This document shows, piece by piece, positions 18,184-37,404 of a stretch of 64,000 bases of DNA. The DNA is taken from NCBI GenBank assembly GCA_016187485.1, contig JACPJO010000004.1, positions 121,349-185,348 on the forward strand, read 5' to 3'. Source of the stretch: Candidatus Uhrbacteria bacterium (GTDB taxonomy: Bacteria; Patescibacteriota; Patescibacteriia; UBA9934; UBA10169). The position numbers were made by a program, and so were the translations under genes. The notes beneath the pieces are model-generated. The model made no database searches. It was not told the origin of the DNA and worked only from the letters and a program-made list of their open reading frames with translations. Positions within the stretch are counted from its first letter, which is position 1, and every line of letters begins with the position of its first letter.

Positions 18184-19074
18184 CTAGACGGGGCGAGCGG
18201 CCATATTGGCGTGCCGTTGACGTTGGTAGCAACTGGAGCAGATGGCCTTGCCGGTCTCGTTGCGAACCTGCACCGGTTTGACCTCACCACACGTGAAACA
18301 CTTCTCGTGCGTGGAGGGGTCTCGATAACGAGCTTTGTGATAGCAGTTCAGACAGATGGCTTCGCCGGTCTCGTTGCGAACCTCCACTCGTTTGACCTCG
18401 CCACACATGAAACACTTCTCGTGCCTGGAGGGGTCTTTGCGATAGCAGCTCGGACAGACGGCCCTGCCGATCTCGTTGCGAACCTCCACTCGTTTGACCT
18501 CGCCACACGCGAAACACTTCTCGTGCCTGGAAGGGTCTTTGCGATAGCAGTTCGGACAGATGGCTTCGCCGGTCTCGTTGCGAACCTGCACTCGTTTGAC
18601 CTCGTCACACACGAAACACTTCTCGTGCGTGGAGGGGTCTCGATAACGAGCCGTCTGATTGCAGTTCGGACAGATGGCTCCGCCGGTCTCGTTGCGCGCA
18701 GCCACCGGTTTGACCTCTCCACATTCCGAGCACTTCTCGTGAGTAGAAGGGTCGTGGTAGCGAGCCCTCTGATAGCAGTTCAGACAGATGGCCTCGCCGG
18801 TCTCGTTGTGCATTGTCAGCGGTTTGACCTCGCCACACGTGAAACACTCCCCGCACCTGGAAGGGTCTTTGCGATAGCAGTTCGAACAGGTGGCTTTGCC
18901 GGTCTCGTTGCGCGCAGCTATCGGTTTGACCTCGCCACACATGAAACACTTCTCGTGAGTAGAAGGATCGTGGTAGCGAGCCCACTGATAGCAGTTCAGA
19001 CAGATGGCTTTGCCGATCTTACGGTTTTTACGGACAGTCCTGTGCCGTCCGCAGGTATCACAAACACCTTTCAC
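18184..19074 (-). CDS. Tandem zinc-ribbon repeat protein: eight consecutive C-x2-C-x16-C-x2-C modules (296 aa)
   Basis: GTG start with a strong AAGGAGG RBS 7 nt upstream. Repeat unit HEKCFxCGEVKxVxxRNETGxAICxNCY(QxARYxDPST/RKDPSR) x8. The opposite-strand ORF 18058..19134 is its shadow. Confidence 0.75.
   Translation of the reverse strand: MKGVCDTCGRHRTVRKNRKIGKAICLNCYQWARYHDPSTHEKCFMCGEVKPIAARNETGKATCSNCYRKDPSRCGECFTCGEVKPLTMHNETGEAICLNCYQRARYHDPSTHEKCSECGEVKPVAARNETGGAICPNCNQTARYRDPSTHEKCFVCDEVKRVQVRNETGEAICPNCYRKDPSRHEKCFACGEVKRVEVRNEIGRAVCPSCYRKDPSRHEKCFMCGEVKRVEVRNETGEAICLNCYHKARYRDPSTHEKCFTCGEVKPVQVRNETGKAICSSCYQRQRHANMAARPV
18200..19060. repeat. Coding tandem DNA repeat, unit about 99-114 bp x8
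   Basis: Recurring ...CGTTTGACCTCGCCACACATGAAACACTTCTCGTG... blocks at about 18393, 18492, 18591 and onward. Confidence 0.7.
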
Positions 19075-19174
19075 GGCTGCACCTCCTTTCGGTTTGGATC
19101 CTGGAAAAGAGCAGACTCAGATCACTTGATCTGACACCGCACCGTACGTTATTACTTGCTCCACGTCAAGGCTA

Positions 19175-19203
19175 AAACGAAAAAGAAATCCCTCTGGGAT
19201 TTC
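19175..19203 (-). terminator. Rho-independent terminator after the DHQS-like gene
   Basis: GAAATCCCtctgGGATTTC hairpin followed on the minus strand by TTTTTCGTTTT. Confidence 0.45.
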
Positions 19204-19225
19204 TCATGAATTGCATCACTACTTT

Positions 19226-20209
19226 TTAACAGCTAAATTCTTCGACCGACTTCGGAATCTTAAATTTATCACAAAATTTTACAAACAATGGCAACAAATC
19301 ACTTTTTACTAATTCCAGTTCACGATATATCCCCATTGCGACGGCGAGTCCGTGTGGAATTTCAAAATGGGTGTCTTCTTCAATTCGGTCAGAAAGTTCA
19401 TGCCCACCTCTCAAAATTTTCCGCGAGCCGTTTGCGTTTTCTTCCACATCGATTTTTAGACACACTGCTTTCAAAGTCGCGGTCCACAAAATTACTTTCA
19501 GTAAAGATTTTTTATTTGTGTACGGGTCGAAGTCTTGTGAAAGTAAAAAATCAAGAAGTGTCTGTGACTGATAAATTGCATGTTTTATCACTTCGCCAAG
19601 CCCAGTCGAAATTTGTCTTTCTGAAAGTGTTTCTAAAAATCGTGGGTCGAGAAGTATTTGGTTTGGCTCGTAAAAACTTTTGTAATAGTGCTTAAAAAAT
19701 CTTCCTTTATCAATCATGTTTACCCTAACCTTTCCACCGCTTCCATCTGCCATACCGATTACGGTTGTTGGAATTTGCACAAGCGGAACACCCAACAGCT
19801 CGGCAACATACGCGGCGACGTTAAGTGTCAATCCACCACCAATTCCAACAACCTCTTTCGCTCCGCTTTCTTTGATACGATTTTGTTCAATAAAGTTTTT
19901 GAGCCAACCCCATTCTTTAAAGGTTTCTTCTCTCGCTTCTTCAAAAAATACATTTTCTTTCGGGAGAAAATCTTTGAGAAAAGTATTTGATAAACCCTTG
20001 TCGCAAAAAATCAATTGTGAATTATTAAATGTATTTTTTGAAAGAGAAGAAACAGAGAGAGAATATGATTTTATCTCGTCACTTCGTGGGTGGAACGAAG
20101 GAACATCGAAAAACAATTCGAACGAAGAAAGTTTGTCGTCCGAGATATTTTTAAACTTTTCGTCAGTAGTGAGCGATTCATTAAGAATTTTTGAATAAAG
20201 ACCGTGCAT
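19226..20209 (-). CDS. 3-dehydroquinate synthase-like (sugar-phosphate cyclase / Fe-ADH superfamily) protein
   Basis: VVGIGGGLTLNVAAYVAELLGVPLVQIPTTVIGMADGSGGKVRVN (DHQS-like GGG...PTT...D..GGK nucleotide/metal block) and HGLAVAMG. The gene is markedly AT-rich (about 37% GC) compared with its neighbours. Confidence 0.65.
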   Translation of the reverse strand: MHGLYSKILNESLTTDEKFKNISDDKLSSFELFFDVPSFHPRSDEIKSYSLSVSSLSKNTFNNSQLIFCDKGLSNTFLKDFLPKENVFFEEAREETFKEWGWLKNFIEQNRIKESGAKEVVGIGGGLTLNVAAYVAELLGVPLVQIPTTVIGMADGSGGKVRVNMIDKGRFFKHYYKSFYEPNQILLDPRFLETLSERQISTGLGEVIKHAIYQSQTLLDFLLSQDFDPYTNKKSLLKVILWTATLKAVCLKIDVEENANGSRKILRGGHELSDRIEEDTHFEIPHGLAVAMGIYRELELVKSDLLPLFVKFCDKFKIPKSVEEFSC

Positions 20210-20294
20210 ATGATTAAAAAATTTTCTTCCCCCAAAATTGAATACGAATTAGTCGCCGAGCGAAGCGAACCAAAACTCTTTGACTTTTCCTGTC

Positions 20295-20371
20295 TGGTGC
20301 GGCCGGAAGGAGTCGAACCCTCGACCTCGTGGTCCGAAGCCACGCGCTCTATCCAGCTGAGCTACGGCCGC
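20295..20371 (-). tRNA. tRNA-Arg (anticodon TCG)
   Basis: GCGGCCGTAGCTCAGCTGGATAGAGCGCGTGGCTTCGGACCACGAGGTCGAGGGTTCGACTCCTTCCGGCCGCACCA folds as a cloverleaf with anticodon loop CTTCGGA. Confidence 0.85.
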
Positions 20372-20446
20372 ATAAGAAACGCAGGAACTGTAGCGGAAAT
20401 CTTGACGTAGGTCAACGAACACGGCATACTTCCTCTGCTTTTTCGT

Positions 20447-20522
20447 GGGCGCATAGCTCAGTTGGTAGAGCAGTTGGCTCTTAACCAAACGGTCGGAGGT
20501 TCGAATCCTCCTGCGCCCACCA
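20447..20522 (+). tRNA. tRNA-Lys (anticodon CTT)
   Basis: GGGCGCATAGCTCAGTTGGTAGAGCAGTTGGCTCTTAACCAAACGGTCGGAGGTTCGAATCCTCCTGCGCCCACCA with anticodon loop CTCTTAA. A GC hairpin (AAGCCCCGCcatgaGCGGGGCTT) follows at about 20563-20587. Confidence 0.85.
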
Positions 20523-20741
20523 GTCACCACAACTTCGAACCTCCAAGAACCCCAGCAAACAAGCCCCGCCATGAGCGGGGCTTGTGCGTTGGCGAAGTCG
20601 TCGTTGACGGGCGAATCAGCAGCAGCAGAGCCGCCTGTGGACAAGTCGGCGATGACTGACCACGAATTCGGACCACGATCGCACACGAGGGAGTAGAGTC
20701 ACCTGTAGAGCACCGTATGAAGAAGAGGGCTATTCATCTCC

Positions 20742-21560
20742 TTGCGCACCCGCGTCGCAGACCCGCCACCGGTAGGCGGCGTCGACTACGTCAACCGTCC
20801 CACTCCGCGCGGGCAGCCGCTTGCTGCCGCGTCACGCAACCGGAAGCTCGTCGTGCTGTCCGGGTTTTTCGCGTTCCTCAAGGAGAAGGGCCATGCGTCC
20901 GCAGATCCGACGGCGGGCGTGCCGTGGAGCCGGCTCACCCGGTCGGAGCGGCCTGCATTGACCGGCGCCGAGATCGGGCGGTTGCTCCGAGCCACGGAAC
21001 GGGCGCGAAGTCCCTGGGCGGCGGCGCGCGACGCCGCGCTCGTCTCGGTGCTGTTCCATGTCGGCCTGCGGCTCGCCGAGCTGGTGGCCCTCGACGTGGA
21101 CCAGGTGGACCTGCGGGCCGGCCTGCTCTTGGGCGTCAAGCGCAAGGGTGGCAACTCCCAGCCGTTGCCGCTCAACGAGTCAGCGAGGAACGCGCTCTCG
21201 GCCTGGCTGGAAGTTCGTGGCGAGGCCACTTCGTCGGCGCTTCTGCTGTCGCAGACCCGCGGTCGGCTGTCGCGTCGAGCCGTCGAAGCGCGGGTCGCGA
21301 CGCTCGGCCGCGTGGCCGGTTTCTCGTTCAACGTCTCGCCGCACATGCTTCGGCACGGGTTCGCGACGGAGATTCTCGCCGCCGGCGCGAACCTCGAAGA
21401 AGTCCGGCGACTGCTCGGGCACACCAGCATCCTGACGACCAGCCGGTATCTGCATCCCGACGGCAAGGCGCTGCGGGCGGCGGTCAACCGCCTGTCTCGA
21501 CCAGCTCGACGACGGGGTGGCGATGGAACTGGAAAACCAGAAGGGGTCGAAGACCCTTGA
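20742..21560 (+). CDS. Tyrosine recombinase/integrase (XerC/XerD-phage integrase family). The catalytic domain is intact but the N-terminal core-binding domain is missing.
   Basis: ...LLRATERARSPWAAARDAALVSVLFHVGLRLAELVALDVDQVDL...HMLRHGFATEILAAGANLEEVRRLLGHTSILTTSRYLH carries the R...K...HxxR...H...Y catalytic signature. The frame opens at 20721 (a stop lies just upstream) with a TTG start, so about 70 N-terminal residues of the usual fold are absent. Confidence 0.7.
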   Translation: MRTRVADPPPVGGVDYVNRPTPRGQPLAAASRNRKLVVLSGFFAFLKEKGHASADPTAGVPWSRLTRSERPALTGAEIGRLLRATERARSPWAAARDAALVSVLFHVGLRLAELVALDVDQVDLRAGLLLGVKRKGGNSQPLPLNESARNALSAWLEVRGEATSSALLLSQTRGRLSRRAVEARVATLGRVAGFSFNVSPHMLRHGFATEILAAGANLEEVRRLLGHTSILTTSRYLHPDGKALRAAVNRLSRPARRRGGDGTGKPEGVEDP

Positions 21561-21711
21561 CCCCGACCATGCGCCCTCTATAGACGAGGACGCAAGCGAC
21601 GCTGCCGGTCACGGTCACGCTCTTGTATTCTAAACATACGTTCAGTATACTGGTTCCTGACAGCGTGTCGCGACCCGCGCCGTTCAAGCCGCAGCATTCA
21701 TTGGAGCACAC

Positions 21712-21918
21712 ATGAGAGTGCAATACGCACGCCTGATCCGTTCGTTGGCACTCATGACAATTGGCTGGCTACTCCTACTCTACACCCCTCCGAACTTACC
21801 ACTCCCTCCGCTCGGCCCGCGCCTCACGTCCTCGCAGTACCTTCTCATCCACGCGATCGCCCTCTTCGCGATAATCCTGTCCCATCGATTGGATCTGCCG
21901 CGCCGGAAACGACCTTAG
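21712..21918 (+). CDS. Small hypothetical membrane protein (68 aa)
   Basis: GGAG 8 nt upstream and one predicted TM helix. Lies inside the island; low confidence. Confidence 0.2.
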   Translation: MRVQYARLIRSLALMTIGWLLLLYTPPNLPLPPLGPRLTSSQYLLIHAIALFAIILSHRLDLPRRKRP

Positions 21919-21977
21919 GTCGATCCGGCACTGGCCTACCCACCCGCTAAATGCGGGTGTTTCCATCTCCCCAGGAA

Positions 21978-22349
21978 TCAAACGTTGCGAGTTCGCATCC
22001 GACCGCGCTGGCGCCGAATCGCGTTTGTGGCGATGACCAACAGAGCGGCGGACGCGCCATTGGCACCCACCAAGATCAACGCACTGACGGCGACATCGGC
22101 GAAAGACACGTGAGATTGCGGTGCGTGACCCCAGAGGGTCTTGAGCAGCATCCCGACTAGAAAGACGAACAGCCCGAGTTCCATCGCAACGAGCGTGGCC
22201 CGCACACTTAGGCGGGATGCGCCCTCGAATGCCAGTTTCGCTATGTGTTCAGCGACCAGGGAGCCGACGATCACGACCACAGCGAACGACATCCATTGCA
22301 AGACTTGTTCGAACACACGAAGTCTCCCGCAGCGCACATACAGTTTCAC
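21978..22349 (-). CDS. Hypothetical membrane protein (123 aa)
   Basis: Two or three hydrophobic helices. It is in the same frame as the upstream ORF 22356..22772, separated only by a TAG and 2 codons. Confidence 0.3.
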   Translation of the reverse strand: MKLYVRCGRLRVFEQVLQWMSFAVVVIVGSLVAEHIAKLAFEGASRLSVRATLVAMELGLFVFLVGMLLKTLWGHAPQSHVSFADVAVSALILVGANGASAALLVIATNAIRRQRGRMRTRNV

Positions 22350-22355
22350 GCAACC

Positions 22356-22772
22356 CTACGCGAGTGGTCCCCTCTCCTTCACGATCACGAAAAGTACGAG
22401 GAGAGCTTCCAGGAGCAAGACAGCGCCCGCGACGAACAGCATTGCCCCGATGTCAGTCATCCTAAAAGTAACCGCAGCGAGCAGCATGGCGCCTACACAC
22501 ACCAGTGCAACAGACGCAGCGACGAACCCATCTCGGACTCGCGAGTCAACGCGCGCATCGTCAACCGATGGCAACACTGCGGTCACGGCTGCCGGATCGA
22601 CAGTGTCAGCCCCAAACACGCGACTGAAGGTAGCACCGTCGGGTCCCACGCTCACGGAGAGAAGCAGGCGTTCCATGATCCCTTCCTCTGCGATCCCAGA
22701 CTTGAGCATATCCCGGCTAATGATCCGTACTTCAGCGAGTCCCGCAGGGTCATCGTCCTTGACGTCTCGCAT
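22356..22772 (-). CDS. Hypothetical membrane protein (138 aa), possibly one gene with 21978..22349 interrupted by an in-frame amber codon
   Basis: C-terminal TM helices (VALVCVGAMLLAAVTF..., FVAGAVLLLEALLVLFVIV). The plus-strand ORFs 22141..22826 are Ser/Thr/Ala/Arg-rich shadows. Confidence 0.3.
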   Translation of the reverse strand: MRDVKDDDPAGLAEVRIISRDMLKSGIAEEGIMERLLLSVSVGPDGATFSRVFGADTVDPAAVTAVLPSVDDARVDSRVRDGFVAASVALVCVGAMLLAAVTFRMTDIGAMLFVAGAVLLLEALLVLFVIVKERGPLA

Positions 22773-22776
22773 TCTC

Positions 22777-23685
22777 CTAGACCTCCCACTCCGGCAGCCG
22801 TGCGGAATTTAGGCGCCAGAGGCTGAGGAGCGCCGCAACCGTTGTCTGGAACGCCCGCCCGGAGTCCTTCTCCCGTCGCCACGCCTCGTTGTCGTTGAAC
22901 TCCGACCACCGGTAGCGCGTCATGGCAGCGAGAATCACACTCCCGGGTATCGACTCACCCAGCGACTCGCCTGCCCGGAGCTTCTGCAGGGCGGCAATGG
23001 ACGAGGACCCAGTTGAGTCAATACTACTCGCCGGCGCGATCACGCCTCGGAGGACCTTGCGGAGCATGGGGGCAGACTGATCACTCGCCCCAAGAGTCGT
23101 GAGAGCCGACGCCACACTCCTGCAACACGAGACGGCGACTTCGACTGCAGCAGGCACGAGATATGGAGATTCCAGGACATCGGCGACTACACGCCGACGA
23201 GACTGGACGAGTCTGTCAGCGAGTCTCCGCCACACGTACCCAAAGTACTCCGCGCCATCCGTGCAACGTCTCTCGATCCACCGGCCGAGTATCAGCACGG
23301 GTGGACGCGCGATCATCTCCATTGCTTCGAGGAACTCGGCAGCCCCCCAAGAGAGCAACTCGCGCGGCGAGTATTGCTCAACGAGTCCAGTAACCATTCC
23401 CATGGCGGCGAAGCGCGCGCAACTCGTTGCCACGGCCGCTCCGAAACGCGCTGAGTCCTGGTACTGCGAGGCGACTACCCCGAACAGCCCCTTAAGATAG
23501 CGGTCGGCATCGAGCTCAAAGCCGATACCGAACGCAAACAGGTCTGGCAAGAACTCAACCACCTCCGGGTTGAGCAGCCGCCCGGCGCCTTCGGATGTCC
23601 GCGCAACCCGCTCAGCGAAGACATGTCGAGCAGCGAAGTGCCCGGCTTCGTGCGCGATGGGCCACCATCGGTAGACATCGAACAT
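22777..23685 (-). CDS. HEXXH-motif protein (candidate ImmA/IrrE-like zinc metallopeptidase); the motif lies only 10 residues from the N-terminus, so the gene is possibly 5'-truncated
   Basis: WWPIAHEAGHFAARHVF (HExGHxxxxH). The reading frame has a stop 40 codons upstream and no ATG/GTG/TTG in between. Confidence 0.35.
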   Translation of the reverse strand: MFDVYRWWPIAHEAGHFAARHVFAERVARTSEGAGRLLNPEVVEFLPDLFAFGIGFELDADRYLKGLFGVVASQYQDSARFGAAVATSCARFAAMGMVTGLVEQYSPRELLSWGAAEFLEAMEMIARPPVLILGRWIERRCTDGAEYFGYVWRRLADRLVQSRRRVVADVLESPYLVPAAVEVAVSCCRSVASALTTLGASDQSAPMLRKVLRGVIAPASSIDSTGSSSIAALQKLRAGESLGESIPGSVILAAMTRYRWSEFNDNEAWRREKDSGRAFQTTVAALLSLWRLNSARLPEWEV

Positions 23686-24208
23686 CGATGTCGTCGTCAG
23701 ATCAATTACACCGAGGCGGTGCGAATACGGGACTCTTGGATCGAACCCAAATGTAACGAGGCCGCCCGTGCGAAGTTCTGCTCCTCGGCAAGCACAAGGA
23801 AGTCAACACCTGGACCGATTGGGACCGCTGGCTTTGTGGACACCGCTTCTCCGCGTTTGGGATCGCCAGTCTACGTACAGTAAGTCAAGTAGGTTAGAGT
23901 TTATAGCCGAAGCGGAGCAGTCTCGCAAGAAAAGCTCTTGCCACGGAGACATGTCCTTAGCTAGAACGAAAGCGCCCGGCCGGACAGAAGTCCGACCGGG
24001 CTAGAGAGCGTCGCGACGACGCGGTGTTCGGGCAGGCACCCGAATCCCCGCCTGCGCGGCGTAGACGGCGCGGTAATGCTGTCGCGCCGCCGCCTTCCAC
24101 CCGCCCACGGTGCAACACACCGGAGGAGAGCGACATGCAGGCCGCGACGCATCCCTTGTAGCCTATTGAGGCCACAGACCGCAACGTCTGTCAAGCACAC
24201 GTAACTCT

Positions 24209-25126
24209 TCAACTTTCCCGGCTCCCCAAGCTGGTGCGGGAATCTCTGTCCCGTGCCGGCTCCCGGTGAGTCCTTGTCCAGGCGGCCCGGCAACCGTCGG
24301 GCGACCTTGAGGAACCCCCATGTCCGCTCTGTATCGGCCTGCCCCGACCTCCACTTCTCCGCTCCCCACCCTCGCCCTCGACCTGGTCTGCCGCGACCTC
24401 GTGCTCCGGCTTCAGCCCCCGATTCGCATCAAGGTCATCGCCGCACTCGCGGCCGGCGAGCGCGATCCCAGCCGGGTCGCCGAGCACGCCTCGCAGATCC
24501 GCCGGAGGATCGGCTGGCCACGCGACGTTCGGACGTCGATTTGCCGTGCTGACCTCGTACGTATCCTGCGTCGCCTGCTCGATGTTCGCCCAGCACGAAG
24601 GCGTGACGCGGAAGGCTGCCCCTGCCGACGGACCCTCGAAGAAGTCCAGGCCCGAATCCTGAGCTCCGTCATGCACGAAGTGGTTTCGGACCGAATACGA
24701 TATGGCAGCAGGCCAGCCGAACGATTGCCGGATCGAGTCGAAGAGCGCCGAAGCGGTGTCTCGCTTCGATGTTTTTCGGACGATGAACTGCGAGATCAGC
24801 CGCGCAGGCGACTTCGAGTTGCGGCCGGCTTCAGGAGTGCAGAGCACCCGACCGACAAGCCCAGTAACTGAGTCCGAGATCGCCCAGGTAGTTGTAAGAT
24901 AAGCGGAAACTCCCAGGAATCGAGCGTTTCGAAACCTGACGCGAGTGGCGCCAAAGGGGACGCGATCGTCACCGTCAACGCGCTTCTCAAGGTCGGCCAA
25001 GAAGGTTCGTGCGTCTTCGCGGGCAATGATCAGGTCACGCCACCGATCTACTTCGAGACGACTGTCGACCATGCCCCGGAACCCGTCCTCGACTTCCTTT
25101 GGCAACGCGCTTGGACAGCGCAACAA
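24209..25126 (-). CDS. Hypothetical protein (island); the N-terminal about 200 aa are protein-like and the C-terminus is low complexity
   Basis: Ordinary aa composition in MLRCPSALPKEVEDGFRGMVDSRLEVDRWRDLIIAREDARTFLADLEK.... The plus-strand ORF 24320..24871 conflicts with it, and the coding strand is unresolved. Confidence 0.2.
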   Translation of the reverse strand: MLRCPSALPKEVEDGFRGMVDSRLEVDRWRDLIIAREDARTFLADLEKRVDGDDRVPFGATRVRFRNARFLGVSAYLTTTWAISDSVTGLVGRVLCTPEAGRNSKSPARLISQFIVRKTSKRDTASALFDSIRQSFGWPAAISYSVRNHFVHDGAQDSGLDFFEGPSAGAAFRVTPSCWANIEQATQDTYEVSTANRRPNVAWPADPPADLRGVLGDPAGIALAGRECGDDLDANRGLKPEHEVAADQVEGEGGERRSGGRGRPIQSGHGGSSRSPDGCRAAWTRTHREPARDRDSRTSLGSRES

Positions 25127-26738
25127 CGCCTTGTCGATACCGTCGTGCAGGGCTGTCGGGCCCGCTCAGCGTAGTCTGGATGTGGAACGAGAAGCCCTCG
25201 CTCCAGGTGTGCTGCCGTTCGAGCGACGTTGCCGGAACGAGCAGGGCGCTGAGGACACTGGCCCGGGCGGGAGTGGGGGCCTCCCTCGCTACATCCTCGA
25301 CGAGACAGACACCCAGGCGGGTTGCCGACCCCTCAAAGTCTGACCAAAACCCCGGGCCGCCTGCCAATGTTCTCCCAATGAGGTCCTTTGCCCGCTTTCC
25401 GTCGTTCGGTAGGCCACGTGCCCGCCTCGACGCGATTGAGAACTCCTCTTCGGCCACCGAGCAGAGTTCCTGCAGTATTCGATCCGGATCGTCCGCCGCC
25501 GTCGCTCCCATCGCGGCGTAGAAGAGCGGCCAGGCGAGCGTCAGGACAACGTCGTCGAGGCCGATGTTCCGCTCACCGAAGAGCCACTCGACGGACTCAG
25601 TCCTTACGGAGAGAGTACGCAGGCATCTGCAGAGCTCGACGCAGTCCAGGGGCCGGAACTCGGCCACAAGTTCAAGCAGTTCGCCGATTTTCACCCGCTG
25701 AGATGCTGAGCAGCGCTCGATGCCGGCGCGCAACTCGAACGCAAACCGCTCCAGGAGGCCGACGCGCCGTCCTGCTAGTCTCAAGATTCTCTCGCTCCTG
25801 GCAAGCGAAACAAGGACCGCGCGTCCTGCAACACTCAGATTCCCGGACAGTGACGCTTCTAGCACGCCCGTCAGTAGCGCTTCCGCGGCCTCCGAGGGTT
25901 GCAGCGACGCGGCACTGTCTCCGACATCGACGAACAGCCAGGTGCGCAGGACATGATCGCGAAGTACATCGGGCTTCAGCTCCACCAGCCTGTTCCGAGC
26001 GCCCCGTTCCGACAGAGCACGCCTGCGTACGAGGGACGCGATGGCGGCCCTCGCCGCCGGAATGCCAGGAAGCCCGGCGTTCTCGGCCAGGAGTTGGACC
26101 TGCGAGTCATCTTCCCGATTGACGGTACCTAGCAGGGCAACCCACCGGAGGAGAGTGTTGACCTGTTCTGCGGGAAGCTCTGTCTGCTGCTCCACCACCT
26201 CTCGGAGGTACACGTTCGCCAATCCGTCTGCGGTCTCTGGGCTCGCGTGCAGAGCGTGCAGGAGCGCCGGAGCGTCGACTCGGGCGAGAAGGGCAGCCGC
26301 TGCTTCCTCCTGCGAGGGCTTCTCTACTGCGGGCTCTGCCAGCGCCGGATGACGGCCGAACTCCATCCCAAGGGCGCCTACTACCGCTGCTACCCCGATG
26401 CCGATGGCCGCCATTGTCCCGCACGCTACACCCCCGTCCTTCAGTTCGACGCGGAGGTGGAGCAGCGGCTGGAGAACATCTCGCTTCCCCGGGAGACCGT
26501 GGTGTCCCTCAGCGCGGCCCTGGATCATCTTGCCGAAAAGCAGGAAGCAAGGTGCACCGAGGAACGGCGGAGTCTCGGCACGAAGCAGAGCCTGTTGCAA
26601 AACCAGCTCCTGCAGGTGACCGACGGCTACGTGCGAGGCGTGGTCCCCGCGGCTGCGTATGCGCCGCTCCGTGATCGTTACCAGGCGGAACTCAACCAGG
26701 TGGAAGCCTGCCTCCGGGCTCTGGACCGCGATGTCCAC
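25035..26738 (-). CDS. Long ORF (567 aa) of uncertain reality in 70% GC DNA
   Basis: No recognisable domain. It overlaps the clearly recognisable serine-recombinase fragment on the plus strand (26247-26738), so at least its 5' portion is probably a shadow. Confidence 0.12.
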   Translation of the reverse strand: MDIAVQSPEAGFHLVEFRLVTITERRIRSRGDHASHVAVGHLQELVLQQALLRAETPPFLGAPCFLLFGKMIQGRAEGHHGLPGKRDVLQPLLHLRVELKDGGVACGTMAAIGIGVAAVVGALGMEFGRHPALAEPAVEKPSQEEAAAALLARVDAPALLHALHASPETADGLANVYLREVVEQQTELPAEQVNTLLRWVALLGTVNREDDSQVQLLAENAGLPGIPAARAAIASLVRRRALSERGARNRLVELKPDVLRDHVLRTWLFVDVGDSAASLQPSEAAEALLTGVLEASLSGNLSVAGRAVLVSLARSERILRLAGRRVGLLERFAFELRAGIERCSASQRVKIGELLELVAEFRPLDCVELCRCLRTLSVRTESVEWLFGERNIGLDDVVLTLAWPLFYAAMGATAADDPDRILQELCSVAEEEFSIASRRARGLPNDGKRAKDLIGRTLAGGPGFWSDFEGSATRLGVCLVEDVAREAPTPARASVLSALLVPATSLERQHTWSEGFSFHIQTTLSGPDSPARRYRQGVVALSKRVAKGSRGRVPGHGRQSSRSRSVA

Positions 26739-27008
26739 GCGGACGTGGCTGCGGTGAAGTCCCTGCTACAGATGGCCGGGGCGCTCCGGCGCTTCTACGA
26801 CCTGGCGCCAACCGAGCGCGAGAAGAAGGATCTGCTGACTCGGGTCTTCCATCGCATCGTCGTCGTCGACCGCACCGTCCAATCCATCGAGTACCAAGCC
26901 CCCTTCGACTGCCTGCTCTCCGACGACAGCCGGTTGCGGGGTTCTGAGATTCCACCGGACGCAGCGCGGGAGCTGCTCGAAGCCGGCCAGAGTGCGCTGG
27001 CGGCCTGA
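26247..27008 (+). pseudogene. C-terminal fragment (zinc ribbon + coiled coil) of a large serine recombinase; the N-terminal resolvase catalytic domain is absent
   Basis: LLRGLLYCGLCQRRMTAELHPKGAYYRCYPDADGRHCPARYTPVLQFDAEVEQRLENISL matches the LSR zinc-beta-ribbon pattern L.GLL.CG.CG..M....YY.C....C, followed by a coiled coil. The frame opens at 26133 (stop at 26130) with no resolvase domain upstream in any frame. Confidence 0.55.
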
Positions 27009-27123
27009 GAGTCCTCCCTCGAACATCGTTAGTTTGCGTCCACCATCCTACGCGACAGCAGCAAAGCTGGTGGAGCGTAGGATGCCCTCCGGAGCTTTAG
27101 CGCAGGAGGGCTGTGTTGTAGGT

Positions 27124-27154
27124 ATTCTCCGTTCAAGCGGAGAATTTTTGTTTT
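27124..27154 (+). terminator. Rho-independent terminator (ATTCTCCGttcaagCGGAGAAT + TTTTGTTTT). It also lies immediately 3' of the rnc stop on the opposite strand.
   Basis: 8-bp stem with a 6-nt loop and a T-tract. It marks the island/backbone boundary. Confidence 0.5.
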
Positions 27155-27857
27155 ACCCCGCCCATCCTTTTGCTTTTAGTGCATTCTGGGCAGCAGAGAC
27201 TTGTGCTTCTTGTTTGCTCGTCCCCTCACCCGTGGCCACCAACTCGCGTCCAAGATACACCCCAATCACAAACTTCTTGGCATGATCCGGCCCCGATTCT
27301 TCAATCACCTTGTATGCCGGCGTGACGGCAAATCGCTCTTGCGCCTCTTCTTGAAATCGTGATTTTGGATCTACGTACAGCTTGAGCTCAAGAATCTTCG
27401 GCAGCTCGACAAGAATATGCGATAAGATAAATTGCTTCGACACTTCCCATCCCTGGTCCAAATACATGGCCCCAATGATCGCCTCGCAGGCGTTGGCCAA
27501 GATATAGCGTCGGGCTTTTGAGTTGGCATCTTTTGCTTCTCCACGCGAGAGATAGAGAAACTCCTCCGTCCGCCACCGTGCACAAATATCCGAGAGCGTG
27601 TCCGCATTTACAAGCGACGCGCGCCAGTTGGTAAGCTCGCCTTCTGGATTATTGTAGTTCTGATACAGGTGCTCCGTGACGACAAGCTCAAGCACCGCGT
27701 CGCCCAAAAACTCCAGGCGCTCGTTGTGCCCGATGGGAAAGTCCGGATGTTCATTGAGGTAGGACCGGTGAACGAGAGCTTGACGCAACATGTCCGTATT
27801 CTTGAATGTCACGCCCAATTCTCGTTCAAGGTCTCCAAGAGGTGAGTGGAGATCCAT
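27153..27857 (-). CDS. rnc: Ribonuclease III
   Basis: RNase III signature ERLEFLGDAVLELVVTEHLY and a C-terminal dsRBD (..GEGTSKQEAQVSAAQNAL..). Confidence 0.9.
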   Translation of the reverse strand: MDLHSPLGDLERELGVTFKNTDMLRQALVHRSYLNEHPDFPIGHNERLEFLGDAVLELVVTEHLYQNYNNPEGELTNWRASLVNADTLSDICARWRTEEFLYLSRGEAKDANSKARRYILANACEAIIGAMYLDQGWEVSKQFILSHILVELPKILELKLYVDPKSRFQEEAQERFAVTPAYKVIEESGPDHAKKFVIGVYLGRELVATGEGTSKQEAQVSAAQNALKAKGWAG

Positions 27858-27866
27858 AGAAGTATA

Positions 27867-28343
27867 TTATTTTTTCTCTTCATCTTTTTTCTTCGGTGGT
27901 TCTTTGTCTACAGCTTTCTCGTTCCCGCTCGCGATCATATCTTTATAGATGGCCCCAAGCACCCCATTTACAAACCGCCCGGATGCCTCGCCACCGAATC
28001 CTTTCGCCAACTCGATGGCTTCGTTAATCGCTACCTTCGAGGGTACGCGCTCCGAATAACACAGCTCATAAATACCCAGACGAAGGACATTCCTGTCAAT
28101 CACGGTGATGGATTCAATCGGCCAGTCTGGAGCAAAGCGCCGGATGCGCTCATCTATCTCCGTTAACCGTCCCAGAACCCCATCCACGAGTTCTTTGATG
28201 AATCCTTCGTCATCGAACTTCGGCGCAAACTCCCCGCGGGCATATTCCCGCCATGCCTCAAGCTGGCCGGCATCCTTGCCGTTGAAATCCCACAGATAGA
28301 GCGTTTGGAGCGCGATGGTACGCGCAAGGTGCCTGTTCGACAT
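27867..28343 (-). CDS. nusB: Transcription antitermination factor NusB, with a Lys/Glu-rich C-terminal tail
   Basis: ARTIALQTLYLWDFNG..., all-helical NusB fold pattern, and tail ...KAVDKEPPKKKDEEKK. Confidence 0.75.
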   Translation of the reverse strand: MSNRHLARTIALQTLYLWDFNGKDAGQLEAWREYARGEFAPKFDDEGFIKELVDGVLGRLTEIDERIRRFAPDWPIESITVIDRNVLRLGIYELCYSERVPSKVAINEAIELAKGFGGEASGRFVNGVLGAIYKDMIASGNEKAVDKEPPKKKDEEKK

Positions 28344-28391
28344 AGAGCAAAGAGCGTTACAGGGAGTATACCATACAAAAGCGCCTGGGGA

Positions 28392-28679
28392 TTACCCAGA
28401 CGCATGTTCTTTTTCTTCTTTGTGTTCCTCGTGATCGTGATCGTGTGTCCCGGTCTTTGCCTTCATTTTTTCTTGCGCACGTTTCATGAGGCGCTCCACT
28501 GACCGCGCAACATTGAGAACTTGGCGACCTCGATAGAACCCACATTGTGCACACGCCGTATGTGGGCGAACAGGCGCTTTACATTTCGGACAATCCGAAA
28601 TTTGCATCGGCTTCAAGGCATGGTGAGCCCGACGCCGACGTGTTTTGGACTTGGAATGTCTATGGCCCGGCAATGGCAT
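28392..28679 (-). CDS. rpmF: 50S ribosomal protein L32 (zinc-ribbon type) with a His/Glu-rich C-terminal extension
   Basis: HRHSKSKTRRRRAHHAL...CPKCKAPVRPHTACAQCGFYRGRQV is the L32 core with a C-x2-C...C-x2-C ribbon. Tail ...GTHDHDHEEHKEEKEH. Confidence 0.7.
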   Translation of the reverse strand: MPLPGHRHSKSKTRRRRAHHALKPMQISDCPKCKAPVRPHTACAQCGFYRGRQVLNVARSVERLMKRAQEKMKAKTGTHDHDHEEHKEEKEHASG

Positions 28680-28713
28680 AACGGCGGCACTCTAGCAAAG
28701 GAGTACGTGCATG

Positions 28714-31197
28714 TCAAACAAGTTCCGCCGTCGCCACGGCGTCCCCTTCTTTCTTAAATCTCATAACTCGTACTCCCTGCGTAGCCCGTCCAAGCACCGA
28801 GACAGAGGAAAGCGCCGTGCGAATTACCTGCCCTGCCTCCGAAACAACCAAGAGATCACGCTCGTCGTCGGAACGCACAATTCGCGCAGACACTACTGAC
28901 CCCGTTTTGTCCGTGACGTTTGCCGTCATAATGCCGGATCCGCCGCGACCTTGTACTTTGTATTCCTCTACCGGCGTGCGCTTGCCGTACCCATGTTTCA
29001 TGAGCGTGAAGAGCTGATACGCGCCCTTCTTTGCTTTACTTGCAATCACTTCCATCCCCACAATCTCATCCGTGCCGTGCAACTTAATACCGCGCACCCC
29101 CGCCGCCACGCGCCCCATCGCGCGCACGTTCTTTTCGACAAACTGAATTGCCTGACCATCAGCCGTTACCAGAATAATATGGTCGTCCCCATCCGTTGGC
29201 CGTACCCACTGCAAACTATCACCTTCGTTTAATTTAATGGCAATAAGCCCGCTTCGGCGCACCGATTCAAACGCGCCAAGCTCCACTTTTTTTATTGTCC
29301 CGCGTCGCGTTACCATGACCAAATATTTGTACGATTCAATATCTTCAAGCGAGAGAGACGTGGTGACAAGTTCGCCCGGTGCGAGCTGTAGAAAATTCAC
29401 CAGTGCCTGCCCCTTTGCCGTCCGGCTCGCTTCGGGCACATCGTACGCTTTCAACTGGAAGATACGCCCGCGGTTCGTGAAGAAGAGCAAGTCTTTATGC
29501 GTCGTTGTGGCAAAAACTTGTTCTACCGCGTCCTCTTCTTTCGCGGTCATGCCCGAGACGCCTTTCCCCCCACGCGCTTGCGCTTTGAACGTGTCCGGCG
29601 GAAGGCGTTTAATATATCCCCCCTCGGTGATCATCACGACGGTCGGCGCATCAGCGATGACATCCTCCATGCGGAAGTTTTTCACGCCGCTTGCCACAAT
29701 CTCTGTGCGGCGCGCATCGCCGTAGCGTTCCTTCATGTCCTTCGCATCCTGTTTCACGATCATCAGAATTTTCGCCGGAGATTTGAGGATAGCTTCAAGC
29801 TCCTTGATAAGCGCCATCTTCTCTTTATATTCCTGTTCCACCTTCAACCGTTCCAAGTTTGCCAACCGGCGTAGCTGCATCTCTAAAATCGCCAGTGCCT
29901 GCAGCTCCGAAAGTTTAAATTTTTTAATGAGGTTGGCTTTTGCCTCGTCTTGATCGGCAGATTTCTTTATAGTCTCAATCACTTTATCAATCTGCAAAAT
30001 AGCAATGCGGAGTCCCTCCAAAATATGGGCGCGCGCTTGCGCTTTATCAAGATCGTATGCCGTGCGGCGGCGAACCACTTCCTGCCGATGCTTTACGTAC
30101 TCCTCAAGCATGCCGCGCAGGTTGAGGAGGCGCGGCGCAATCCCGTCCACTAGAGCGACAAAATTCGTATGAAAAGTATCTTGCAGTTGTGTGGCTTGAT
30201 ACAGGCGGTTCAACACTTTTCTGGGATACGCGTCCTTCTTGAGTTCAATGACAACGCGCAGCCCGTCTTTGGACGACTCGTCGCGCAAGTCGCGAATGCC
30301 CTCGATCTTTTTCTCCTGCACAAGATCAGCAATCTTCTCAAGCAGCGCCGCCTTGTTCACTTGGTAAGGAATCTCGGTAACAATAATAGCGTGCCCTTGC
30401 TTATCCTCCACGATTTCGGCTTTCGCCCGCATGACGATGCCGCCTCGGCCCGTGGAATACGCTTGGCGGATGTCCTCACGGTTGTAGATAATCCCGCCCG
30501 TGGGAAAATCCGGGCCCTTCACGAACTGCAACAAATCTTCCACGGTCGCTTTTGGATTTTCAATCAAGTGAATGATCGCGTCGCACACTTCGGTGAGGTT
30601 GTGAGGGGGAATATTCGTGGCCATACCGACCGCAATCCCAAGTGTCCCCTCCACCATGAGAGTAGGGAGCTTAGAGGGAAGCACGCGCGGTTCCTTGTGC
30701 GTGCCATCGTAGTTTGGCGCAAACTCCACCGTTTCTTTTTCCAGGTCCACGAGCGCCTCCTCGGCAATAGCAGAAAGCTTGGCCTCCGTATAGCGATAGG
30801 CAGCCGCTTCGTCTCCGTCAATCGAGCCGAAGTTCCCCTGCCCGTGCACAAGGGGGTATCGGAGCGAAAAGTCTTGTGCCAAACGCACAAGCGCCGCATA
30901 CACCGATGCGTCCCCGTGCGGGTGGTATTTCCCAAGCACGTCTCCAACCACCGTGGCGCATTTTTTAAACTTGGCGCTCGCCCGTAGCCCCGACTGCCAC
31001 ATGGAGTAGAGAATGCGCCGTTGAACGGGTTTCATGCCATCGCGCACATCGGGAAGAGCGCGCTGAACAATGACAGACATGGCATAATCCAAATAACTCG
31101 TCTCCATCTCGGTGACAATACTACGATCCACAATGTGCCCAGCGGACGGTGTTACCTGAGTGTCTTCCTGTTTTTCTGGCAGGGGGCGTTTGGCCAT
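28714..31197 (-). CDS. gyrA: DNA gyrase subunit A
   Basis: 827 aa with ...[30 protein letters not shown]..., active-site Tyr region ([10 protein letters not shown]) and C-terminal beta-pinwheel repeats. Confidence 0.95.
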
Positions 31198-31206
31198 ACG
31201 AAAATA

Positions 31207-31407
31207 TTACTTGGCAAAGGCGTTTTGGAATCCATCTTTCAGCTGATCTTGCGTGGCAGCCCCCCCTTCGAGACTCTGTCCGAACGTCCGAAGTGACTCC
31301 CTCACACTCAAGAGCCAAACCGCAAGGCTCCCCGCAAGCACAAGCGCAAAAGCTGTATAGGCAAAGATCCGTGTCCGGTGAGGAAGTTTTGGATCAACAA
31401 GCTGCAT
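31207..31407 (-). CDS. Small hypothetical membrane protein (66 aa; start placed at the internal ATG 31407 so it abuts the upstream stop)
   Basis: Single TM helix (IFAYTAFALVLAGSLAVWLLSV). It sits between the MBL hydrolase gene and gyrA. Confidence 0.3.
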   Translation of the reverse strand: MQLVDPKLPHRTRIFAYTAFALVLAGSLAVWLLSVRESLRTFGQSLEGGAATQDQLKDGFQNAFAK

Positions 31408-31409
31408 AG

Positions 31410-32048
31410 CTATTCGCGGCGTAAAACAACAACTTGAAGAACGTCCTCCGTCAAGTCTTTTTTGGCGACTTTCCATTTGACCTGTTCTTCTTTGGAGGTA
31501 CTGCCAAGCGCGCGCAAAAATTTTTCCGGCCCCAACTCTTTCACGCCGATAGAAGATGCCCCAAAATAGATCGGGACGACCGCGCGCGGCTCAATGGCCG
31601 TCACGACTTCTGCGGCCGTCTCGGCATCGAGCACCACCCCGCCGCCCACGGGCACAAACAGGATGTCTACATCCCCAAGCAATTTCAATTCTTCCTCCGA
31701 AAGCGGACGGTCAAGCGCGCCTAAATGCGCGACCTCCAATCCCTCGGCCGTCAGTCGTGAAACGAAGTGTGCACTCCCATCTTTGCGCGGAACGGGAAGG
31801 GCGTAGCAGAATATGCCACCCACTTCGTACTCGCCCGGAATATCTATGACGAAAGGCTTTCCTTCTATACCCTCAAGCGCGTGCGATTCCGGCGCATCAT
31901 GGGAAGCAACAATCAAATCTGCTTTAAGCAACCGCGGCGGACGCATGCCAACGCTCGACGCATACGGATCCATAACCACGCGCATTTCGCCCTGCGCGTG
32001 CTTTGCCGTCATATCCACACACCCAAGTCCGTGAGAGACAAATTGCAT
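31410..32048 (-). CDS. MBL-fold metal-dependent hydrolase (UPF0173-like)
   Basis: ..DLIVASHDAPESHAL.., ..DILFVPVGGG.. and an overall beta-lactamase-fold pattern of about 210 aa. Confidence 0.65.
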   Translation of the reverse strand: MQFVSHGLGCVDMTAKHAQGEMRVVMDPYASSVGMRPPRLLKADLIVASHDAPESHALEGIEGKPFVIDIPGEYEVGGIFCYALPVPRKDGSAHFVSRLTAEGLEVAHLGALDRPLSEEELKLLGDVDILFVPVGGGVVLDAETAAEVVTAIEPRAVVPIYFGASSIGVKELGPEKFLRALGSTSKEEQVKWKVAKKDLTEDVLQVVVLRRE

Positions 32049-32051
32049 AGT

Positions 32052-32723
32052 TTACATTTCCCCCAAAACATCCTTCCAGTAGTCTACGGCGGCCTTTACA
32101 TCCGTCGGGTCTGGATCACGCTCCGTTACCGACCAGCCCGTGCGGAAGGTCCGTACTTGATTATTGATCTCTTCCGCATAGCGCTTGTCTTTGCCCGCAA
32201 GCGTTTCCAGCTCCTCGATCAACGCTTCAATACTCTTGGCCTCCGCCTCCCAATGCGCCACGCGTTCGTCGTACTCTTTGACGTGGTTTTTCACAATACC
32301 CTTGTCCTCTTGCTCCATTTTGTAGCGCGCCAGCAGCATTCCATCTTCCACCTGGTAGCGCTCTTCCGGAGAGAGCTTCTCCTGAAACCAGCCGCTTGCC
32401 ATAACCTCTTCAATCGTCACCCCGTCTTTCAACATGGGACGGAGTTTCTCCGCCACTTTCGCATCCACGTGGTCAAGCACAAGTGCAGCCTCCATCCCCT
32501 CACCGTACGTTCCGTGCAAATCCAAAAGCGCATGACGGTGTGGATATTCCTTGCGCCCAAGTTCCGCGAGAGCCTCAAGAACGGTTTCCTCTGTGATAGA
32601 TTCATCTGCACGAAACTTCGCAACCTGTGCCTTTGCCTGCTTGGCAAGATCCGGCAGAGTCGGGGGAAGTTTCTTGACGGCAAGGTCAAATTCGAGGAGA
32701 AGAGACTGATGAGGATGGGCCAT
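32052..32723 (-). CDS. Hypothetical protein (223 aa), acidic and helical
   Basis: Clean single ORF 4 nt from the MBL gene. No recognisable motif. Confidence 0.5.
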   Translation of the reverse strand: MAHPHQSLLLEFDLAVKKLPPTLPDLAKQAKAQVAKFRADESITEETVLEALAELGRKEYPHRHALLDLHGTYGEGMEAALVLDHVDAKVAEKLRPMLKDGVTIEEVMASGWFQEKLSPEERYQVEDGMLLARYKMEQEDKGIVKNHVKEYDERVAHWEAEAKSIEALIEELETLAGKDKRYAEEINNQVRTFRTGWSVTERDPDPTDVKAAVDYWKDVLGEM

Positions 32724-32842
32724 AGGAGTAGGGAAAGAATGGGGCTATTGTAGCCCAAGCGGCGATGGTCGTCGAGGGAGTCCGCAAAAAGAGAAACCGA
32801 CCTGTTGAGGTCGGGCGCGGAGGAAGGAACGAGGGGCGGAGG

Positions 32843-33202
32843 CTAGGCCACGGCGGCAGGCTTACCCGTGCTGAAGGCGGTAGCCGGAAGCGGAATGAGA
32901 GCGACGAGCGGCCGCTCGCGATCCTTCAGCTCCTCGACCGGCAACACCGTGTTCGCCAGGCACTCCGTGAGCGCCATGTGCACGCGGGTGTGCAAGTCGT
33001 TGCAGACGTCGGGCGTACGCGTCCCCTTCTCCTTGTAGACGATCTCGACGTAGATCGAACGACCTTCGGTCACGATCGGGATGGGACGGATGTTGTCCGC
33101 GTGCGCGCCAAAGTCGGGCGTGCCGATCATGGCCTTCACGATGGCCTCCATGAGCAGGCCGGGGGTGTAGAACAGCGGGCAGTAGAGCTTGACAGCGGGC
33201 AT
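32843..33202 (-). CDS. T-fold protein, possibly QueF-like (7-cyano-7-deazaguanine reductase family)
   Basis: Start placed at MPAVKLYCP.... LYCP..GTPDFGAH resembles QueF SLCPKTGQPDFA, and PDVCNDLHTRVHMAL resembles HEDCMNIIMNDL. Weak similarity judged by eye only. Confidence 0.35.
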   Translation of the reverse strand: MPAVKLYCPLFYTPGLLMEAIVKAMIGTPDFGAHADNIRPIPIVTEGRSIYVEIVYKEKGTRTPDVCNDLHTRVHMALTECLANTVLPVEELKDRERPLVALIPLPATAFSTGKPAAVA

Positions 33203-33261
33203 GGAGCCTCCAGGGTTGCGTTGGCAATGTAGCAGGATACCAAGAAAAATCAAGGTGGATT

Positions 33262-33291
33262 CTCTCTTAGTGATCTCTAAGAGAGAATCTT
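33262..33291. promoter_or_regulatory. Perfect 12-bp inverted repeat ATTCTCTCTTAG-tgatct-CTAAGAGAGAAT in the divergent intergenic region between the T-fold gene and rpsA
   Basis: Read directly. It contains the TTAGTGATC core seen at 5631/5718, 48552 and 49118. Confidence 0.45.
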
Positions 33292-33413
33292 TGCTATGCG
33301 CCTATCCGCTCCTTGACACTCGGCCTGGCATCGCCTACACTCCCCCCATTCTTTATTCATAGCCCCGTCCGTCCCCGACTACCTAAAAGTCAGGCTACGG
33401 CCGGAAATATCGT

Positions 33414-34544: not shown

Positions 34545-34601
34545 ATAGATAATGAACGGGGCTTCGAGGCCCCGTTCCTTCGTGTTATACTGCCATCGCT
34601 T

Positions 34602-36458: not shown

Positions 36459-37404
36459 CCCTGCCCGTTACCGAACTCTGCTCCGAGAAGCAGCGCAAGA
36501 ATCCATTGCCGTGCGTGACGGATGGTTTTTTGGTATACCGGCCGCCCTCATTCTCTCCGGGAGTGCCGTGGGGCCCCTTATGCGCGCATGGCGTGGCATT
36601 TCCCTCCCCGAAAACACGTTTTTGGAGCGCCTGTTTCCGTGGAGCGAACCGCTTGGGCAATGGGTCGCACAACTCCCCCTCCTCTCCTCCACACGCGCGA
36701 CCCTTACGTTGAGTTTTGTTATTACCCTGGGATTTTTCCTGGCTATTCTTGCCGTCTTGTGCCAGGGTGCCCTGGTAGAGATGGCCCGCAACAGGCACAA
36801 AAAGTCCCCCCGTTCCCTCCTTCAAAATTCAAAGAAAATATTCTGGCGCGTGCTCGGCATTGATGCTCTTGCCTTCGCGACGACGGCCGCTCTCCTCGCT
36901 CTCCTTTTCGCCCCGCTCCCTGCCCCTCTTTCGTGGTTTGATGACATAACGCAGATGCTATTCCTTCTTGTGGGCTTTGCCCTCCTTCTTGTCTCTTCGG
37001 CCGTAGCAATTTTTGCTTTGGCTGACACGGCATCGGGGACGGGAGTGTGGCAAAGCTGGCGCACAGCTTGGCGCACTGCACTTGCCCACGGTCTCGCAAC
37101 AGTGGAACTTATTCTTCTGCTGCTTGCCGCAAGCTTCGTCATTGGTGCTATTGGAGCAGTCGCCCTATCCTTCATCACCGTGCTCTACAGCACCCTCTAC
37201 CTTGTCTTTGCGTGGGCGGGCTCCCTGGTCCTCACATCGTTTGCCACCACGGTGGCTACGCTCCTGTTCGTGGCCACACTCCTTCTTGGGGCTGGGGTGT
37301 TCACGGCCTTTGCCTACCACACATTGACACGGGCCTACACGCACATAAAAAAGCGGCAGTTTGAGAGCCGGACGCGCCGCATGGTACAACAGATGTGGCT
37401 ATGA
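36436..37404 (+). CDS. Hypothetical polytopic membrane protein (322 aa)
   Basis: At least 6 hydrophobic helices. It overlaps the ftsH stop and the pilB start by a few nt, which is operon-like packing. Confidence 0.5.
   Translation: MAHASKRNPARYRTLLREAAQESIAVRDGWFFGIPAALILSGSAVGPLMRAWRGISLPENTFLERLFPWSEPLGQWVAQLPLLSSTRATLTLSFVITLGFFLAILAVLCQGALVEMARNRHKKSPRSLLQNSKKIFWRVLGIDALAFATTAALLALLFAPLPAPLSWFDDITQMLFLLVGFALLLVSSAVAIFALADTASGTGVWQSWRTAWRTALAHGLATVELILLLLAASFVIGAIGAVALSFITVLYSTLYLVFAWAGSLVLTSFATTVATLLFVATLLLGAGVFTAFAYHTLTRAYTHIKKRQFESRTRRMVQQMWL

Follow-up and report, generated by a model that had tools for sequence, protein, structure and literature searches.

The stretch of DNA examined here, hereafter the window, comprises 64,000 nucleotides of a very small bacterium from groundwater, a Candidatus Uhrbacteria (NCBI GenBank assembly GCA_016187485.1, contig JACPJO010000004.1, positions 121,349 to 185,348 of the forward strand). 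Between a tRNA-Lys gene and rnc it carries some 6.5 kb of GC-rich DNA (20523 to about 27045) containing pieces of a tyrosine recombinase, a large serine recombinase and a STAND NTPase operon, and this segment is very probably what is left, no longer mobile, of a genomic island acquired by horizontal transfer. On its left side lie two tRNA genes, tRNA-Arg(TCG) on the minus strand (20295-20371, called by ARAGORN) and tRNA-Lys(CTT) on the plus strand (20447-20522, called by ARAGORN and by Rfam with 73 bits). The latter is the putative integration target, and its CCA end marks the left boundary, the first base of the island (20523) following directly. Besides the tRNAs, no RNA family was found in the island by an Rfam scan.

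The GC content of 20523-27045 is 63.5% (63.4% for 20523-27150), compared with 55.6% in the left flank and 54.9% in the right one, and elsewhere in the window stretches of 6.6 kb reach 58.3% at most. Along the profile, values of 0.44-0.57 near the tRNAs give way to 0.65-0.71 at 20.5-21.5 kb; they stay at 0.58-0.68 until ca. 27.0 kb and are back at background by ca. 27.0-27.15 kb, with 0.50-0.53 inside rnc. The jump right after tRNA-Lys and the return near rnc had already been described in an earlier reading made from the letters alone (the sequence-only reading) and agree with our profile; the 69% that it gave for the whole segment is reached only locally, in the peaks at 20.75-21.5 kb (0.71) and 24.0-24.75 kb (0.68). 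The GC content at third codon positions (GC3) of the open reading frames (ORFs) in the island was 0.64-0.82, i.e., at or above the 0.58-0.64 of the host genes. In both GC and GC3 the segment is therefore unlike its host, as is typical of genomic islands that target tRNA genes. Public assemblies from one project, made separately for each of at least 10 sequencing runs, were 99.9-100% identical to the window, and both junctions of the island were crossed by single contigs with 100% identity (for example L009, covering 20466-27716, and L001, covering 20239-37857). Since both junctions are spanned in independent assemblies, the segment is neither a chimera nor the product of sequencing error.

The first gene of the island, located 220 nt from tRNA-Lys, codes for a XerC/D-like tyrosine recombinase of 272 amino acids that is truncated at its N-terminus (20742-21560, plus strand). 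The Pfam domain Phage_integrase was found at residues 73-240 (E = 5.9e-33), and the best NCBIfam models were those of the XerC and XerD resolvases (TIGR02224 and TIGR02225), with which the protein has the catalytic motif set in common; the match to XerC spanned positions 59-285 of a profile of 295. However, with 159.5 and 152.2 bits the protein falls well short of the 335 and 330 bits required by the models of these dimer resolvases, and the gene is found in an island and not at a conserved housekeeping site. Eight homologues of 299-325 amino acids (51-57% identity) have the N-terminal domain PF02899, which is present in all nine homologues aligned (35-57% identity). The window protein aligns only from residue 56-58 or so of the homologues, the homology starting at 20781, so that about 56 N-terminal residues are missing while the catalytic R-K-HxxR-H-Y set is retained. 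Without the N-terminal domain it is not a full-length functional integrase. The frame opens only at 20721, being closed by three stops up to 20720, and tblastn with the eight full-length homologues detected no remnant of the missing N-terminus upstream in any frame; a frameshifted N-terminus, which was considered, is ruled out by this result. Among viral contigs the closest relative of the integrase had 37% identity.

At the opposite end of the island, the plus strand carries the C-terminal half of a large serine recombinase, with its zinc ribbon and coiled coil (26235-27008, the ORF itself being 26247-27008). It matched the Pfam family Zn_ribbon_recom (E = 1e-8) and positions 355-562 of the 651-position phrog_95, and aligned without gaps to residues 254-478 of a full-length serine recombinase of 513 amino acids in the contig L171 (37% identity, E = 7e-43). 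This C-terminal region (PF13408, phrog_95) is homologous to that of the phiC31/Bxb1/TP901-1/XisF-type large serine recombinases. Unlike them, the window copy has neither the resolvase catalytic domain nor the recombinase domain, which makes it a gene fragment and not an enzyme, and the frame upstream of it is either closed or taken up by the STAND fragment described below. A word-based protein search with this remnant returned only the query itself. Both the tyrosine recombinase with a catalytic but no N-terminal domain (its frame opening at 20721) and the serine recombinase C-terminus devoid of a resolvase domain had been recognized in the sequence-only reading, and the domain matches and homologue alignments confirm the two descriptions. 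Sequencing error, which that reading had left as a possible cause of the truncations, is discarded by the near-identical independent assemblies. Its warning that gene calls would be unreliable here was also justified. The public per-run assembly gene call contains a 567-amino-acid ORF on the minus strand (25035-26738) whose first 165 codons or so are antisense to the serine recombinase remnant, at a place where the NCBI annotation has a zinc-ribbon protein of 253 amino acids. The long ORF is a chimeric annotation artefact typical of GC-rich inserts.

Between the two recombinases, the recognizable cargo is a broken two-gene operon on the minus strand, which had gone unnoticed in the sequence-only reading. 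Its first gene (25104-26252) is an internal fragment, residues ca. 379-751, of a STAND NTPase of about 1330 amino acids, identified by HMMER and tblastn. An exhaustive HMMER search of 1.84 billion representative proteins gave 169 matches, 69 of them below 1e-30, the best with 50% identity. Most are 1300-1350 amino acids long and all align from residue ca. 375-390 to ca. 750, indicating that the window keeps the middle third of the gene. The full-length homologues have an NTPase domain of the AAA_16/nSTAND5 type at residues 180-330; the fragment lacks this P-loop domain and also the C-terminal 580 residues. The second gene (24209-25177) is a homologue of the 295-amino-acid partner found with STAND NTPases of this family, with 39% identity to the partner in the contig L099 (11996-12883; E = 6e-57) and 48% to P0128, a fusion protein, over its residues 1027-1158. 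It has lost ca. 8-24 N-terminal codons, start codon included, and its 3' end is divergent and extended; a frameshift was suspected there but could not be established. The STAND homology ends and the partner homology starts within 25104-25177, in different frames, from which we infer that about 1.8 kb has been deleted together with the partner start codon. A terminator-like hairpin with a 12-bp stem is located downstream of the partner gene (23974-24001, minus strand).

In other hosts the two genes form an uncharacterised family (L099, 8001-12883, and proteins P0124-P0272). In L099 the partner gene overlaps the STAND stop codon, i.e., the two are translationally coupled, and in P0128 they are fused. 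The full-length STAND NTPase has a weak N-terminal match to a TIR-type model (E = 1e-4), and the L099 pair adjoins protein kinase, CHAT protease and NTase-conflict genes, with IS66 and an integrase nearby. Neither the STAND family nor the partner had a PADLOC or Pfam family above threshold, and no solved structure was matched. STAND NTPases have been placed in conflict and defence systems (PMC7159879, PMC8195603, PMC13581612). Full-length members of the present family share with the STAND conflict systems (Kaur et al., 2020, PMC7159879) and the Avs/NLR-like sensors (PMC13581612) the NTPase domain followed by a long helical C-terminal region; the window copy differs in being reduced to residues ca. 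379-751, and the defence role of the family is a predicted one.

The remaining ORFs of the island are less informative, and no accessory ORF had a family match in Pfam, PHROGs, NCBIfam or PADLOC. On the minus strand, a 302-amino-acid ORF (22777-23685) had been singled out in the sequence-only reading by an HEXXH motif, the signature of zinc metallopeptidases. The motif does exist near the N-terminus (HEAGH at residues 12-16). However, no peptidase family was matched in Pfam, PHROGs or NCBIfam, and a word-based search of 5.8 billion proteins returned the ORF alone. Its only homologue came from tblastn searches in which the queries were the genes neighbouring related integrases: residues 420-506 of a 1001-amino-acid protein in contig L098, whose gene adjoins the integrase P0002, aligned to 23775-23509 of the window with 33% identity over 89 amino acids (E = 2e-11). 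The alignment runs past the ATG of the ORF into open frame upstream, up to 23775, and the homologue has HEAGN in place of HEAGH. Therefore, the region 22777-23775 is a 5'-truncated fragment of the 1001-amino-acid family, and its HEXXH, not being a conserved metal site, is no evidence for a metalloprotease. One frame of the minus strand contains, at 21978-22772, a pair of hydrophobic ORFs (138 and 123 amino acids) separated by an in-frame TAG (22356-22358) exactly as first described, and the AT skew across them is +0.27. They represent either a membrane gene with a nonsense mutation or two small genes. Finally, there is an ORF of 68 amino acids with one hydrophobic segment on the plus strand (21712-21918).

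The clearest evidence that the segment has been inserted comes from a relative. Proteins identical to the integrase and to the 302-amino-acid ORF product are recorded in public databases under Candidatus Uhrbacteria. Among 185,579 species genomes, the closest match to rnc (80% identity) was found in another Candidatus Uhrbacteria, of the UBA10169 lineage (L016), the other matches being all to members of the Candidate Phyla Radiation (CPR, or Patescibacteria). In this relative rnc and a convergent tRNA-Lys(CTT) are only 98 nt apart, with tRNA-Arg beside them. The comparison with a related genome devoid of the insertion, advised in the sequence-only reading, thus reveals an empty site. Directly 3' of the tRNA-Lys of L016 there is a terminator, a hairpin followed by TTTTTGTTT. 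In the window a terminator hairpin with the tail TTTTTGTTTT (27124-27145, plus strand) abuts the stop codon of rnc and has the same TTTTTGTTT tail as the one found after tRNA-Lys in the relative. By its orientation this terminator fits tRNA-Lys and not rnc. The empty site together with the orientation of the terminator indicates that 6.5 kb were inserted between the CCA end of the tRNA and its original terminator. The segment has then the main attributes of a tRNA island: insertion at the 3' end of a tRNA gene, an empty site in a close relative and an integrase at the end proximal to the tRNA.

The right end is less sharply defined. When the last 25 nt of tRNA-Lys were searched allowing up to three mismatches, only the tRNA itself was matched, so that there is no long attR repeat. 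Near the place where the sequence-only reading had advised looking for a partial one there is, however, TGCGTCCACCA (27035-27045, plus strand), identical at 10 positions to the terminal 11 nt of tRNA-Lys. When the 144-nt spacer was shuffled 20000 times, a match to this terminal 11-mer arose in 23 cases (p ~0.001). The 107 nt to the right of 27045 begin directly after the 11-mer, have a host-like GC content (54%) and are similar in length to the 98 nt of L016. The right end of the island is therefore probably at 27045, with modest support, and the 11-nt repeat is a candidate attR remnant. What follows (27046-27152, plus strand) would be the original host spacer, with a palindrome of 41 bp, a second hairpin, and the terminator with its T-run.

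This spacer is also remarkable for its structure. The minimum free energy of 27030-27155 is -57.8 kcal/mol (z = -5.7), with no Rfam match, and the near-perfect 41-bp palindrome (27044-27084) overlaps the attR-like 11-mer; the whole could be the remnant of a recombinase site or simply a terminator run. On the other side, the left arm (20523-20741, plus strand) contains a GC-rich hairpin (20552-20592, an inverted repeat, fold z = -3.9), which may serve now as the terminator of tRNA-Lys, and the stops of the integrase frame up to 20720. The sequence 3' of tRNA-Lys resembles that found 3' of a tRNA-Val in the contig L097. An attL arm conserved between both was considered and rejected, the shared AAGCCCCGC-loop-GCGGGGCTT being a generic terminator that a metagenome scan found after many genes and tRNAs. 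In L016 (10880-10990), a piece of 26 nt (gacaacagaattaagcgcgcatagct), made of the upstream flank and the first bases of tRNA-Lys, is duplicated about 75 nt upstream of the real gene, and may have been left by an earlier rearrangement at this tRNA.

As to the type of element, the sequence-only reading had proposed a prophage or an integrative and conjugative element. Matches to PHROGs were confined to the two recombinases, with no structural, packaging, replication or lysis genes, and no relaxase, coupling protein or type IV secretion component of an integrative and conjugative or mobilizable element was matched in Pfam, NCBIfam or PHROGs. Phage and plasmid collections contained no DNA similar to the island and, at the protein level, no relatives of the serine recombinase remnant or the STAND fragment. 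Neither proposal is supported, and the recognizable cargo is a broken STAND-NTPase conflict or defence operon; the more general idea of an integrative element in decay is borne out by the empty site in L016, the truncated recombinases and at least four deletion junctions. The contigs carrying homologues of the island genes have 61-65% GC, with the exception of L097 (54%), a range in which the island falls but the host does not. The closest homologues are carried by ERZ651165 NODE_1250, SRR28401846_55551, GCA_044230415.1 JBGARE010000018 and GCA_964452565.1 CAYVLY010000002, and their surroundings are of a variable island or conflict type. The integrase relative P0002 is found in a region with CBASS, TIR and WYL genes, and P0008 in a restriction-modification region downstream of a tRNA-Val. 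Among 80 rnc loci of CPR genomes, island proteins were absent save for one distant serine recombinase match (L066), and none was found elsewhere in the window.

Two of the four integrase-relative loci examined have a large serine recombinase within 6-8 kb, one of them related to the window remnant. This is the case of L171, where P0004 (53% identity to the window integrase) and the full-length serine recombinase are 5.6 kb apart. The loci L097, L098, L171 and L172 have the integrase alone in common, two of them having also a serine recombinase. In L171 (3959-11993) and L172 (1344-10900) the integrase relative is 5.6-7 kb from the full-length serine recombinase, with unrelated cargo in between that includes, in L171, a DEAD-box helicase operon; no clear element boundaries were found in L171.

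The best description of the segment is that of a degraded defence/conflict-type island from a high-GC donor. It resembles the tRNA-associated tyrosine-integrase islands (P4-like, Islander/TIGER-type, and degenerate “anchored” ones) in its site at the 3' end of a tRNA with an adjacent integrase, foreign composition, variable accessory or defence cargo, absence from a close relative and decay by deletion. It differs from P4- and lambda-type islands in its integrase, which belongs to the XerC/D-like clade and lacks the N-terminal domain, and from typical tRNA-associated islands in its host, a CPR bacterium with a small genome, and in the short and imperfect repeat that is its candidate attR. In its original form the element would have carried two recombinases, a XerC/D-like integrase on the tRNA side and a large serine recombinase at the opposite end, flanking a conflict or defence cargo made up of the STAND-NTPase operon of two genes and a gene of the 1001-amino-acid family. 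Supplied by a donor with ca. 61-65% GC, it would have entered an ancestor of this Candidatus Uhrbacteria when the tyrosine integrase recombined attP with the 3' end of tRNA-Lys(CTT). The end of the tRNA would then have been rebuilt from the copy in the element, and its own terminator displaced by 6.5 kb to 27.12 kb, beside rnc. That the tyrosine integrase carried out the integration and that the cargo was a defence system are both likely.

At least four deletion junctions could be mapped in the island. The deletions removed the first 56 codons or so of the integrase, about 420 codons from the start of the gene of the 1001-amino-acid family, about 1.8 kb whose loss joined STAND codon ca. 752 to partner codon ca. 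8-24, and the 5' halves of the divergent STAND and serine recombinase genes. In the latter case the two homologies meet at 26235-26252 pointing apart, so one deletion took both halves. The in-frame TAG that splits the membrane ORF is a further sign of decay. Every recognisable gene is a fragment, and we consider this an ordinary dead island rather than an active element; presumably, what is left can neither move nor act.

Several observations weigh against this reading. A single informative relative with an empty site was found, and it belongs to another species. The candidate attR is only 11 nt long with one mismatch, and when the query was widened to every 11-mer within the final 41 nt of the tRNA, 472 of the 20000 shuffles gave a match (p ~0.024). 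The direct repeats of typical tRNA islands are 17-60 nt long, and tRNA duplications of 45 nt, found in the metagenome contigs L176 and L177, contrast with the 11 nt of the window. Three small ORFs (68, 138 and 123 amino acids) had no homologue found, and cluster look-ups of the homologues did not name a donor lineage. Besides, the integrase keeps an open frame and all the catalytic residues. Recombinases of the FimB/FimE type function without an N-terminal domain, and to judge from its residues the shortened integrase may retain some activity.

The alternative that survives best, although we regard it as clearly the less probable, is that two elements were nested or placed in tandem: a tyrosine-integrase island at tRNA-Lys and a serine recombinase element that arrived later, both merged afterwards by deletions. 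The recombinases are at opposite ends, the GC content is a mosaic (0.58-0.71) inside the island, elements mobilised by a serine recombinase can usually do without a second integrase, and half of an old att site could survive in the 41-bp palindrome, which lies 36 nt downstream of the serine recombinase stop codon. However, the pairing of both recombinases is found also in L171 and L172 and may be proper to one type of element, and no internal att-like repeats were found. A single island remains the preferred reading. It is improbable that the segment is a working minimal mobile or switchable unit in which the short recombinase excises or inverts DNA. The catalytic residues are intact in an open frame, and residues 69-238 are similar in NCBIfam to tyrosine DNA invertases of 200 amino acids, but all nine aligned homologues have the N-terminal domain, all other genes are fragments, neither inverted nor long direct repeats flank the segment, and in ten or more assemblies of this population no empty-site or variant contig appeared. 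Even less credible is a high-GC segment ancestral to the Uhrbacteria lineage and cleanly lost in the UBA10169 lineage. The only empty-site relative available is a different species, which would leave room for it, but a clean loss must restore the exact adjacency of tRNA and terminator, GC3 is far from that of the host genes, the homologues are on high-GC contigs (apart from the distant match in the CPR loci), and the site plus the integrase are classic marks of insertion. As for a high-GC contig wrongly joined to a CPR contig during assembly or binning, the strong compositional jump and the break of the per-run assemblies at 20239, near tRNA-Arg, would fit, but the single contigs from independent runs that cross both junctions, with CPR sequence on both sides, make it practically untenable.

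Other features deserve mention. Directly 3' of tRNA-Arg(TCG) there is a patch of low GC (19000-20250, 39% GC), the mirror of the high-GC island at the neighbouring tRNA-Lys. It holds a 3-dehydroquinate synthase-like gene (19226-20209, minus strand) with a GC3 of 0.34 against 0.58-0.64 in the host genes, and appears in the per-run assemblies as a separate contig of 1.3 kb. No flanking repeat of the tRNA-Arg end was found; the patch may be a second foreign insertion. At 32500-33250 the window has a short bump in GC content (0.59-0.63) with positive GC skew amid otherwise negative skew. Among the metagenome contigs, the pairs L176/L192 and L177/L188 have an identical flank downstream of a tRNA-Val, one contig of each pair with the whole tRNA and the other with its last 45 nt or so placed after unrelated DNA; L176 also encodes a distant integrase, some 900 nt away. 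These pairs appear to be the occupied and empty sites of islands in unrelated high-GC bacteria.

The island does not overturn current understanding, but it shows, cleanly and with well-defined bounds, how a streamlined CPR genome acquired foreign DNA that then decayed rapidly, with the empty site preserved in a sister species, and can be useful as a teaching case. It illustrates how CPR genomes receive foreign DNA of very different composition that is then eroded by deletion, and how GC-rich inserts set traps for annotation, here the chimeric 567-amino-acid ORF and the “HEXXH” protein. As a by-product, it has led to the uncharacterised family formed by a STAND NTPase and its 295-amino-acid partner, intact in other hosts. 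A more far-reaching interpretation, which we consider unlikely, is a cross-phylum transfer of a defence-carrying element with two recombinases from a high-GC bacterium to an ultra-small CPR episymbiont. If so, the pairing of integrase and serine recombinase seen in the window, L171 and L172, one at each end with changing conflict cargo in the middle, would be a previously undescribed element architecture, and had the Uhrbacteria lineage received it from its own physical host, islands like this one could be used to infer the identity of the hosts of CPR bacteria.

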